Below are positions 15,492-18,884 of a stretch of DNA of 28,013 nt, in pieces. A program made the translations under genes and the position numbers. Below the pieces are notes generated by a model. The model had not been told where the DNA came from and ran no database searches. It saw nothing but the letters and a program-made list of their open reading frames with translations. Within the stretch, counting starts at the first letter, position 1. Every line of letters starts with the position of its first letter. The DNA lies in assembly GCA_019058365.1 (NCBI GenBank), contig JAHPZE010000044.1:1-28013 (forward strand), in the 5' to 3' direction. This DNA comes from Promethearchaeota archaeon. Its GTDB lineage: Archaea; Asgardarchaeota; Lokiarchaeia; Sigyniarchaeales; SOKP01.

Positions 15492-18400
15492 GTGAAAAGA
15501 GGTTATGGAGATTTGAGAATATTAGTTTTAAGTCATCGAAATCCGTATTTTCCTCCATATATTTTTTTAAAAATGCCTGAGACGATTCAAAGAGATGATA
15601 TTAAACAGGTTCCTTTATTGATAGATCTCTATGAAAACGGTTTTTTTAAACATATGTTTGGAACTTTTAAAACTGCTAACCTAATCTTTGATATCCCGAG
15701 CGAGTACTCAAAAACTCAAAAGGAGCACCTTTTAATTTCATTAGTTATTGATGGTAAATCTAAAATTAATTCTGCATTAGCAGAAGAGTTTTTAAAGGGA
15801 TTAGTCGAAGAGTTCAAAAAAATCGAAAATGTTTTCAAGGCATTTTATGTGGGCTCTAGAATATATAAAGGAGATCCTACAAAATTAGAGGAAATTAGAA
15901 CATTACTCAATACTTTTCATTTATCTTTTCCAGAGGAAAAAGTTATATTTGAGCAAAAAGAGGCAAAAATATTAATTTTTGGGCTTTCGTTGGCAGGGAA
16001 AACGACTATAATTAGAACGAGAAGAAAATCAGTATCAAAAACAACATTTCCAACTATAAATGTAGATATTTCAAGAATTTTAGTTAACAATGTATCGTTA
16101 TTAACTTATGATATTCCTGGAAAATACAAAGTTAAAGAATTATGGAAACCTTATCTAAAAAACCAAGACGGATTGATTTTTGTTTTAGATGTTACCGATA
16201 CAATAAAATTCTCATATGCACGTGAATTATTGCATGAAATTGCGGGGAAACCAGAATTAAGTGAATTGCCACTTCTTATCCTTTATAACAAAATTGAAAT
16301 AAAACAACCTGATATAAACGATCTAGATGAGGCCATGGGAGTGAAAAAACTCGGAAAGAGACCAATGAAATCATTTTTAGCAAGTGGGATTAAAAACATA
16401 AATATTGATGAGGCGTTTAATTGGCTTTCACTTAAAATTGCAGAGAGAGTTGAACATTATACTCCAAGAAGAGAGATTGGTATAATTTTTAGTCACTGGG
16501 ATGAAAATCTTGGTCTTAAAATTGAAGCAGTTTATCCTACAGATGCTTTTGAGAATCCAGAATTGATATCTGTAAAAAGTTTTTCAATATCACAATTTAT
16601 TTTTGGAGGGGAACAGTTTAGACCAGCCTCAGTCATTCTTCCTTTTCCTCACTTAAATTCAAATGCAGCAATTTACTTTGATTTTGTGCCAAATGAGAGC
16701 ATCAGGGGTGGTATATTACCATTATCTTTAATAATTTATTACAATGAAAAAATTCCTAAAAATATTATTAACCAATTTAGTTCTTTCATACTTCAGCAAT
16801 TTGATGAGATAAAAAAGAATTATTTAAATAAAAATCAAATAACCACTATTCTTGAAATTATTCATAATACAATAAATCATCAAATTGATTTATATCGGCC
16901 ATCAATTGAAGCACTTAAAATGGCTGAATTACATTATGAGGCTTTATTTAAAGCTGCTCGGGATGCTATTTTAATAATTGATAAAAAATCAGGAATAGTT
17001 ATGGATGTTAATAAAGAAGCTGAGGCTTTGTTTCAACGACCATTTGAAGATTTCATTGGAATGCATTCAAGTCAAATATTAAGTGATATAATTGATAAAG
17101 ATTTTAATGAAGAGTTATTTGATCAATTTAATTATCCATTTCCCTTAAGATTAGAGGTTATTGATAGTGCTGGTAATTTTATTCCAGTTGAAATTAGTCT
17201 CAATGAAGTACAGATGGGGGGTCAAATTTTAGTTCAGTATATAATTCGGGATATTAGTAAGAGAGTAGAAGCAGAAATTAAATTAAAGCATTCTGAAATA
17301 AAATATCGTCATCTTTTCGAAAATTCACCGTTTTCTATTCTTTTGATTGATCCTAATGGAACTTTAGTTGACTTTAATCCTGTTTTAGAGGAAACATTAG
17401 GATATACAAGAGAGGAACTTATGGGACGTAAATTTGTAGATCTTTTATTAATACATCAAGATTATATTAAAGATGTTCTAAAAAGATTGAAAAGACAAGA
17501 AAGAGGAAAAATTCTTTCTCCATTAGAAATTCAACTTTACCATAAAAATGGCAACCTAATTTGGGTAAATTTACAATCATCTTTAGTTGATATTGGTGAT
17601 AAAACATTTTATCAAATTATTTGTCAGAATATAACAGAGCAGAAAAAAATAGAACAGGAATTAAAGAAAATATCTAGATTAAAAACTATTATTGCAGGAA
17701 TTGTATCAAGATTTGTAGGTGTAAAGAAAAATAATCAAGCTTTAATTGAATCACTTAGAGATATTGGTGAATTTATTAACGCAACACGAGCATATCTTTA
17801 CATTTTTAATAATAATTTTAATTTCACAAAGAGAAATTATGTCTGGTCTCGTAAGTTGATTCTTCCTCCAATTAATTTACCTGAAGATATAGACATTAAT
17901 AATTTTCCATGGTTAAATGAGAACTTAAAAGAATCTGATTATTTTTATATTAAAAACGTAGCTACACTTCCTAGAGACGCAGTAAAATTAATGTATTTTC
18001 TTAAAAATCAAAAAGCGAATAATTTTTTGACACTTCCAATTAAAATTAATGGGATTTTAGAAGGATTAGTTTGCTTTGATAATGTAGGAGATCAGGATTA
18101 TTGGGTAGAAGAAAATTTAGAATTATTAACTATTATTTCAGAGATTTTTAAAAATGTGATGCTACGTATGTTAGTTGAAGAAAATATACGTATAGGTGAA
18201 GAAACTATGCACCAAGAATTAGATAGAGAATATTTTTATAAAGAACTATTCGTAAATGATATAAATTCTATAATAAAGAACGTTCAATTATTATTAGAAG
18301 ATTACAGCAAGCAAGATAGAAAAATTATATCAAAATCTAAAAGAGAATTACTGGATGATATTAAAGATCAATGCATAAATGGTCAACTTCTAATATACAT

Positions 18401-18884
18401 AATACAAAAATTAACTATGATTGATGAAGCAAATGTTTTAATTAAATCAGTAAATTTAAATGATGTTATTGATGATGTTAAAGAATTTATCACAAATAGT
18501 TATTCTAATAAAAAAATTAGAATAACTGTCGAACACCCATCAGAGGATCTATATGTAAAAGCTGATAAGTTCCTCATTGATGTTTTTGTGAATATCCTTA
18601 TCAGTTCAATTCGATACAATAAAAATCCAAAAATTAAGATTAAAATTATTATCTTTAGAAGTCAAATGGATGACATAAATTATATTAAAATAAAATTCAT
18701 CGACTATCAAAAAGAGATTTTAAATATAGGAAAAGAAATGATCTTCCGAAAAGAAAGAGAAAAGGATAGTAAGATTAAAGAAATAATTTTAGGATTTCTT
18801 TTAGTCGAACGAATCTTAAATAGTTACAATGGAAAAATTTGGGTTGAAGGAGATTCTTTTTTAATTTTATTGCCCGAAGCTTAA
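15492..18884 (+). CDS. Multidomain signalling protein: uDENN/longin-like + Arf-like small GTPase + uDENN/longin-like + PAS + PAS + GAF + degenerate histidine-kinase (HisKA/HATPase) core
   Basis: GTPase aa ~157-318: G1 GLSLAGKTT, G2 FPTINV, G3 YDIPGK, LWKPY, GLIFVLD, G4 YNKIE, NIDEAFNWL. PAS aa ~480-590 (YEALF..DAILIID..VN...IIRDISKR) and ~603-718 (YRHLFENSP...LGYTREELMG...NITEQK). GAF aa ~745-892 (RAYLYIF...FPW...LPI...GLVCFD...W). Kinase-like tail YKELFVNDIN...DVFVNIL...YNGKIWVE...LP. TTG 15513 (9 nt after GAGGT) is a likely alternative start. Confidence 0.88.
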   Translation: MKRGYGDLRILVLSHRNPYFPPYIFLKMPETIQRDDIKQVPLLIDLYENGFFKHMFGTFKTANLIFDIPSEYSKTQKEHLLISLVIDGKSKINSALAEEFLKGLVEEFKKIENVFKAFYVGSRIYKGDPTKLEEIRTLLNTFHLSFPEEKVIFEQKEAKILIFGLSLAGKTTIIRTRRKSVSKTTFPTINVDISRILVNNVSLLTYDIPGKYKVKELWKPYLKNQDGLIFVLDVTDTIKFSYARELLHEIAGKPELSELPLLILYNKIEIKQPDINDLDEAMGVKKLGKRPMKSFLASGIKNINIDEAFNWLSLKIAERVEHYTPRREIGIIFSHWDENLGLKIEAVYPTDAFENPELISVKSFSISQFIFGGEQFRPASVILPFPHLNSNAAIYFDFVPNESIRGGILPLSLIIYYNEKIPKNIINQFSSFILQQFDEIKKNYLNKNQITTILEIIHNTINHQIDLYRPSIEALKMAELHYEALFKAARDAILIIDKKSGIVMDVNKEAEALFQRPFEDFIGMHSSQILSDIIDKDFNEELFDQFNYPFPLRLEVIDSAGNFIPVEISLNEVQMGGQILVQYIIRDISKRVEAEIKLKHSEIKYRHLFENSPFSILLIDPNGTLVDFNPVLEETLGYTREELMGRKFVDLLLIHQDYIKDVLKRLKRQERGKILSPLEIQLYHKNGNLIWVNLQSSLVDIGDKTFYQIICQNITEQKKIEQELKKISRLKTIIAGIVSRFVGVKKNNQALIESLRDIGEFINATRAYLYIFNNNFNFTKRNYVWSRKLILPPINLPEDIDINNFPWLNENLKESDYFYIKNVATLPRDAVKLMYFLKNQKANNFLTLPIKINGILEGLVCFDNVGDQDYWVEENLELLTIISEIFKNVMLRMLVEENIRIGEETMHQELDREYFYKELFVNDINSIIKNVQLLLEDYSKQDRKIISKSKRELLDDIKDQCINGQLLIYIIQKLTMIDEANVLIKSVNLNDVIDDVKEFITNSYSNKKIRITVEHPSEDLYVKADKFLIDVFVNILISSIRYNKNPKIKIKIIIFRSQMDDINYIKIKFIDYQKEILNIGKEMIFRKEREKDSKIKEIILGFLLVERILNSYNGKIWVEGDSFLILLPEA

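Follow-up and report, generated by a model that had tools for sequence, protein, structure and literature searches.

An Arf-family G domain enclosed between two longin-type domains, on a chain that continues into PAS, GAF and degenerate histidine-kinase parts, was found in the window (the whole 28,013-nt stretch of DNA that was analysed, with a G+C content of ~29%). Judged from sequence profiles and structural models, the flanks are true longins of two different Asgard subfamilies, each bearing an [FW]D-x3-G(P) hairpin and a later Arg-Gly loop, a signature that is common at the sequence level to the eukaryotic longin-pair GAPs FLCN, NPRL2, SMCR8 and C9orf72. We lean, by a modest degree, towards a platform of GAP-type ancestry in which the paired longins would sit against the Arf switch face, present as a decayed clamp in the window copy.

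The open reading frame opens at a GTG at 15492 and ends with a stop at 18884 on the + strand (1130 aa, P0001); residue numbers in all domain coordinates count from this GTG (Table 1). The real start of the gene is most likely the TTG at 15513, because a Shine-Dalgarno-like motif lies just upstream and most orthologues have 1123 aa with the same first residue. The database gene call for this contig (P0003, 1103 aa; window 15492-15575) begins at Met28, so that the first two strands of the N-terminal longin are missing from it.

Table 1. Coordinates of the gene, its parts and the paralogues encoded in the same genome
Feature	Position	Strand	Basis or remark
Whole gene: longin-Arf-longin-PAS-PAS-GAF-degenerate histidine kinase	15513..18884	+	Open reading frame, 1123 aa from TTG
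Shine-Dalgarno-like AGAGGT	15497..15502	+	Read in the sequence; ~10 nt 5' of TTG 15513
Longin-type N-domain (aa 8-147), degenerate in this copy: P21-P22 replace GP and K74 replaces Arg	15513..15932	+	AF2 model, hhalign, family
Arf-family G domain, aa 152-319	15945..16448	+	P-loop GLSLAGKT, G3 DIPGK, G4 NKIE
C-terminal longin domain, aa 325-445; W336-D337, G341 and R405-G406-G407 conserved	16464..16826	+	
Long helix joining C-longin to PAS1, aa 447-480	16830..16931	+	AF2 helix 447-480; 126-147 in the C-domain model
Two PAS domains, about aa 488-590 and 604-718	16953..17645	+	Pfam PAS_9 1e-26 (two stretches), PAS 1e-17
GAF-like domain, aa 751-884	17742..18143	+	Weak match: Pfam GAF E 9e-4, below curated cut-off
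Degenerate histidine-kinase core	18225..18884	+	HATPase_c (1026-1128) E 4.8e-4, 21 bits, below cut-off
N-domain-PAS-GAF-PAS paralogue	L007:1492-3147	+	Window's own genome
Longin-Rag-like GTPase paralogue	L002:409-1878	-	Window's own genome; sub-threshold Folliculin match, E 0.0019
Receiver-longin paralogue	L003:1351-2229	-	Window's own genome
Longin-Rab/Ras-like GTPase paralogue	L004:1480-2520	+	Window's own genome

The Pfam Arf domain was matched at residues 152-314 (E 6e-34), and both sequence and fold place aa 152-319 in the Arf family. On the flanks (residues 1-150 and 320-470) no Pfam family was found even at E 10. An earlier note made from the sequence had placed a GTPase between two flanking domains at 15513-16886, and this layout was right. 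The AF2 model of residues 1-481 had a mean pLDDT of 80 and a pTM of 0.45, with low inter-domain confidence; a structural search with this 481-aa model had GTPases alone among the matches listed and was uninformative on the flanks.

The C-domain was modelled alone by AlphaFold2 from an alignment of 30 orthologues (A3; pLDDT 87.9, pTM 0.85) and searched against 48,161 representative chains. The top structural match was the longin of a Lokiarchaeal Roadblock-Longin protein (8yqg; score 16.1, 136 aligned, 2.5 A). Below it stood the longins of Lst4 (13.5; 13.5-13.8 across two looks), FNIP2 (12.0, range 12.0-12.6), FLCN (11.6), NPRL3 (11.3), C9orf72-SMCR8 (11.2) and NPRL2 (10.0-11.1), then SNARE longins (9-10), DENND1, Mon1-Ccz1 and TRAPP (8-9.4) and roadblock domains (8.7 or less). 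Foldseek was concordant (8yqg 1.5e-4, SEA/GATOR1 chains ~4e-4, Lst4 8e-4), and re-examination of its top 1000 chains left the order of matches unchanged. Since 8yqg and the GAP-class longins rank first, the C-domain as modelled is a longin, nearest to the class of longin-pair GAP complexes. The structure search proposed earlier as a check thus came out for the longin fold when run on the C-domain alone, with the GAP class best among eukaryotic matches. Assignment as Roadblock/LC7 was rejected, as no helix precedes strand 1 and roadblock domains were not the best matches. A protein-atlas feature search with the C-domain gave a low-score lead only, to an Asgard cluster with NPR2 on 19% of its members; the Pfam NPR2 model had no match in the window's own genome, and three sub-threshold matches in 300 other genomes of the phylum lay outside the longin part.

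Both flanks follow the longin order by DSSP on the AF2 models (beta1-beta2-alpha1-beta3-beta4-beta5-alpha2-alpha3, with no helix before beta1). The N-domain block, with a pLDDT of 77-92 within the model of residues 1-481, has strands at 9-16 and 23-28, a helix at 35-46, strands at 50-55, 59-69 and 77-87, and helices at 94-109, 114-119 and 129-145. BLASTP of one flank against the other found nothing (E 5.3), and hhalign with orthologue-only profiles gave no significant alignment of N against C (P 0.074). With wide family profiles (237 N-domains versus 131 C-domains), the two aligned across 91 columns in hhalign (probability 78%, P 1.7e-5). Several controls were run: the N profile against its own PAS1, PAS2, GAF and G domain gave P 0.2-0.4, 60 column-shuffled C profiles scored at most 17.9 against the 35.4 observed, and a reversed C profile scored 13.3. 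PAS1 against PAS2 reached 99%. At the hairpin, the N-family L-S-x-F-D-x3-G-P...P is aligned onto I-F-S-x-W-D-x3-G...Y-P of the C-domain, and in the loop before strand 5 the N-family A-R-G is aligned onto R-G-G. With this P value, clean controls and the same order of elements in the AF2 models, the mutual similarity of the flanks was upheld in the register drawn in the earlier note.

No significant match came from profile searches of PDB sequences with A2, A3 and A4; the best matches of the N-domain profiles included NPRL2's first hairpin (E 1.0 and 0.17). A Pfam scan of 26 standalone N-domain proteins returned three weak matches to Afi1 (uDENN-like) and nothing else. Taken on profiles and models, the N-domain is in all likelihood a longin. 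The flanks had been described as uDENN/longin-like: the longin part of that description holds for the C-domain by structure search and very probably for the N-domain by hhalign and AF2 order, and the DENN part does not. A DENN domain (uDENN-cDENN-dDENN) was rejected, the N-domain being followed by Arf and the C-domain by a helix and PAS, with no DENN-family Pfam match.

Motif states were counted across 82 orthologues. In the C-domain, WD (336-337) is present in 79/82, including the window copy, and stands five and four residues before Gly341, a pattern as in C9orf72 W33-D34. Gly341 is found in all 82, again including the window copy, with Pro next to it in only three. Arg405 is kept in 80/82 and the full RGG (405-407) in 75/82, and the window copy has RGG. 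Known arginine fingers of longins are FLCN R164, NPRL2 R78 and SMCR8 R147; the Arg-Gly loop may correspond to NPRL2 Arg78, a match given no weight here. At positions 21-22 of the N-domain, the orthologues have a clear GP in 18 cases, PP in 35 and RP in 15; in the wider family (A4) the hairpin G is invariant and P reaches at least 90%. Position 74 is Arg in about 48/82 orthologues and in at least 90% of the wider family. The window copy has PP for the family GP and Lys74 for the family Arg, and the first copy is indeed the more degenerate one, as the earlier note had said.

The G domain of the window copy keeps the P-loop (GLSLAGKT) and the switch I Thr. Its G3 reads DIPGK, with Lys211 in place of the catalytic Gln that is present in 44/82 orthologues, and its G4 reads NKIE, with Glu269 for the Asp of the NKxD found in 78/82. 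The window copy therefore has neither of these Arf hallmarks, and its N-terminus is a longin domain rather than an amphipathic helix. Coupled loss of the G3 Gln (codon 16122-16124) and the N-longin Arg74 (15711-15713) was also considered. Arg74 occurs in 44/44 orthologues with Gln and in 4/35 with Lys or Tyr, which is suggestive; the tree is underpowered, offering only four independent contrasts (sign test p 0.5 or more), and in the wider N+G set the Arg is kept beside a non-Gln G3 in at least 14/52 clusters. The coupling was not counted as support.

In the kinase part, the H-box of the window copy reads N-D-I-N, with Asn for His, and G1 reads DYQKEI. Distant orthologues have H-D in the H-box, and a few have DNGxGI. 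On these sequence grounds the histidine kinase is very probably inactive in the window's clade, given N-D-I-N here against H-D in the distant orthologues, and the ancestor of the kinase core was probably an active kinase, since those orthologues retain H-D and a few DNGxGI.

In longins of the GAP class, strand 2 starts with a GP motif and an arginine finger is present, with C9orf72 W33-D34 just before G38-P39 (PMC12290439), and GP and Arg are present in structurally similar Asgard longins (PMC12290439, 2025 Traffic paper). In the C9orf72-SMCR8-ARF1 structure the longins cup ARF1 and SMCR8 Arg147 is directed towards the nucleotide; activity depends on C9orf72 W33/D34 (PMC8213707). For the window protein, we infer that the two longins pair into a built-in platform, which would engage the enclosed Arf-family G domain at its switch face; which way the regulation runs is inferred likewise. 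The nucleotide state would pass through the helix at aa 447-480 into the PAS-PAS-GAF-kinase part. The ancestral platform was most likely a GAP-type regulator or a GTP-state clamp and not an exchange factor; GAP-type rather than GEF-type ancestry is the best-supported reading of the motifs and modelled structures. In the window's clade, catalytic decay has changed the G3 Gln to Lys, the N-longin Arg to Lys, GP to PP and the kinase His to Asn. Canonical GAP chemistry could not run in the window copy because the N-longin Arg, the GP and the G3 Gln are all missing there. With the canonical hydrolysis chemistry lost on both sides, a slow or locked clamp is likelier than an enzyme cycle, and the window copy is probably a slow or non-hydrolysing nucleotide-dependent clamp or scaffold.

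A more far-reaching version of this proposal is tentative, and we give it perhaps one chance in a few: longin-Arf-longin would be a single-chain longin-pair GAP of ancestral type together with its client, acting in Gln/Arg/His-intact orthologues as a self-timing GTP switch that gates a histidine kinase, with the window clade as a locked, non-catalytic derivative. If true, it would be direct fusion evidence that Arf-family GTPases partner the GP/Arg-motif Asgard longins.

The distribution of the parts bears on whether the longins act on the G domain of their own chain. An N-domain profile search of 1.84 billion representatives gave 566 clusters at E 1e-3 or better, and architectures were counted in the best 145 of these. 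The N-domain is standalone in 29 clusters, joined to PAS or other sensor parts without a GTPase in 64, directly followed by a G domain in 36, and part of N + G + C-domain proteins in 16. It thus lacks any GTPase in 93 of the best 145 clusters, so the N-domain has roles beyond a GTPase in cis. The longins may not regulate the cis G domain at all, serving instead as modules that dimerise or recruit partners, be these other proteins or other small GTPases in trans, with Arf as an independent input or output. Consistent with this are the best structural match, 8yqg, which is a longin homodimer, the dimeric nature of histidine-kinase scaffolds, the many other small GTPases encoded in the genome, including those of L002 and L004, and the decay of the N-longin Arg and GP in the window's clade, in a protein whose identity between genomes remains at 80-96%. 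Set against it, the C-domain was found only directly behind N + G, and a search for standalone C-domain proteins gave four short matches only, one of which bears an Arf domain, and no separate standalone family. The tripartite module also exists alone at ~475 aa: three N+G+C proteins (P0201, P0209 and P0236; 473-483 aa) consist of longin-Arf-longin without sensor or kinase. Longin-GTPase fusions with three GTPase families in one genome further argue for a direct longin-GTPase relationship. We give this reading, in which the longins do not act on the cis G domain, a chance of about one in four.

The earlier note had read the protein as a possible intramolecular GEF. In such a GEF the longin pair would act on the enclosed G domain by opening its nucleotide pocket, in the manner of Mon1-Ccz1, TRAPP or DENN on Rabs. 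The longin-type flanks around a GTPase fit this reading, and the rest of it does not stand well, because by structure scores and motifs the closest relatives are longin-pair GAPs and not GEFs. The Mon1-Ccz1, TRAPP and DENND1 matches lie 3-8 Z units below those of GAP-class longins, no exchange-type element was identified, and the WD, G(P) and Arg-Gly motifs conserved here are reportedly confined to GAP longins and missing in the longins of TRAPP, adaptin and DENND (PMC12290439). A GEF is hence improbable here. Least probable is a reading in which the C-domain alone is a longin and the N-domain has a different profilin-like sensor fold (PAS or GAF-like): the order beta-beta-alpha-beta-beta-beta is common to PAS, and the protein-atlas feature search gave weak leads to PAS clusters for one standalone member of the family (0.81-0.87, few shared features), whereas the hhalign contrast between its own PAS and GAF domains and the C-longin, the single helix between strands 2 and 3 with long helices after strand 5 in the AF2 model, the NPRL2 hairpin among top PDB matches and the 3/26 members with weak Afi1 matches all count against a non-longin fold.

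As a known system for comparison with the preferred platform of paired longins on the Arf switch face, the ARF GAP longin pair C9orf72-SMCR8(-WDR41) bound to ARF1 was used (PMC8213707; PDB 7mge, 7o2w, 6lt0). In the window protein, by contrast, all three parts share a single chain in which the longins bracket the G domain, without DENN parts and without WDR41; the N-longin Arg and GP are also missing from its copy, as is the G3 Gln. FLCN-FNIP2/Lst7-Lst4 and the GATOR1 pair NPRL2-NPRL3, longin-pair GAPs for Rag, supply the best eukaryotic structural matches to the C-longin, but they act on Rag and not Arf, and their longins sit in separate subunits whose C-terminal parts are DENN or NPRL-specific. 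The 8yqg longin belongs to a roadblock-longin protein, crystallised as a homodimer, and is not fused to a GTPase or sensor.

Related fusions are already in print (Liu 2020, Tran 2024, Zhu 2025, 2025 Traffic paper). MK-D1 has longin-GTPase, GTPase-roadblock and longin-GTPase-roadblock fusions (PMC10933270), Asgard Arfs with longin N-termini have been described (PMC11914678), and NPRL2-like longins show many fusions with two-component domains (bioRxiv 10.1101/2020.10.19.343400). These share with the window protein the organisms, the kind of fusion and the link of eukaryote-type GTPase regulators to prokaryotic sensor-kinase parts; in contrast to them, its C-terminal flank is longin-type and not roadblock-type. 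In the literature texts that were searched, no description was found of two longins bracketing Arf on a PAS-PAS-GAF-kinase chain. Which Asgard GTPases, Arf-related or Rag, partner the GP/Arg-motif GAP-like longins is an open question in PMC12290439, and a conserved chain in which two of these longins enclose an Arf-type G domain suggests a natural answer on the evidence of fusion. Longin-Arf-longin also offers a soluble and compact system in which to ask if the GAP activity of longin pairs is older than the eukaryotes, and its attachment to PAS-GAF-kinase would wire eukaryote-type GTPase regulation into prokaryotic signalling. The value of this particular copy is limited by the published related fusions and by its catalytic decay.

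Longin-GTPase adjacency is a recurrent theme in the window's genome, which encodes the paralogues L002-L004 and L007 (Table 1). L002, L003 and L004 have GP/RGG-type motifs; [FW]D is present in L002 and L003, and L004 lacks the aromatic residue and reads D-E-L-G-P.

With residues 1-470 as query, 113 clusters were obtained, every one from Asgard archaea and of the same architecture; identity was 46-96% across almost the full query length. Their source labels are Promethearchaeota or Lokiarchaeia, and also Thor-, Odin-, Hod-, Hermod- and Heimdallarchaeota. Orthologues that are 75-88% identical carry NCBI labels of six Asgard phyla (Odin-, Thor-, Hod-, Hermod-, Heimdall- and Promethearchaeota), and these labels look inconsistent. 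Gene neighbourhoods were compared using 61 related loci taken from species-representative genomes; no conserved neighbourhood was found, with neighbours recurring in at most 6/60 related loci. A contig labelled Bathyarchaeota (L069:1700-2527) encodes an N-longin and Arf with 35% identity to the window protein, for which mis-binning, gene transfer or a wider distribution are possible explanations.
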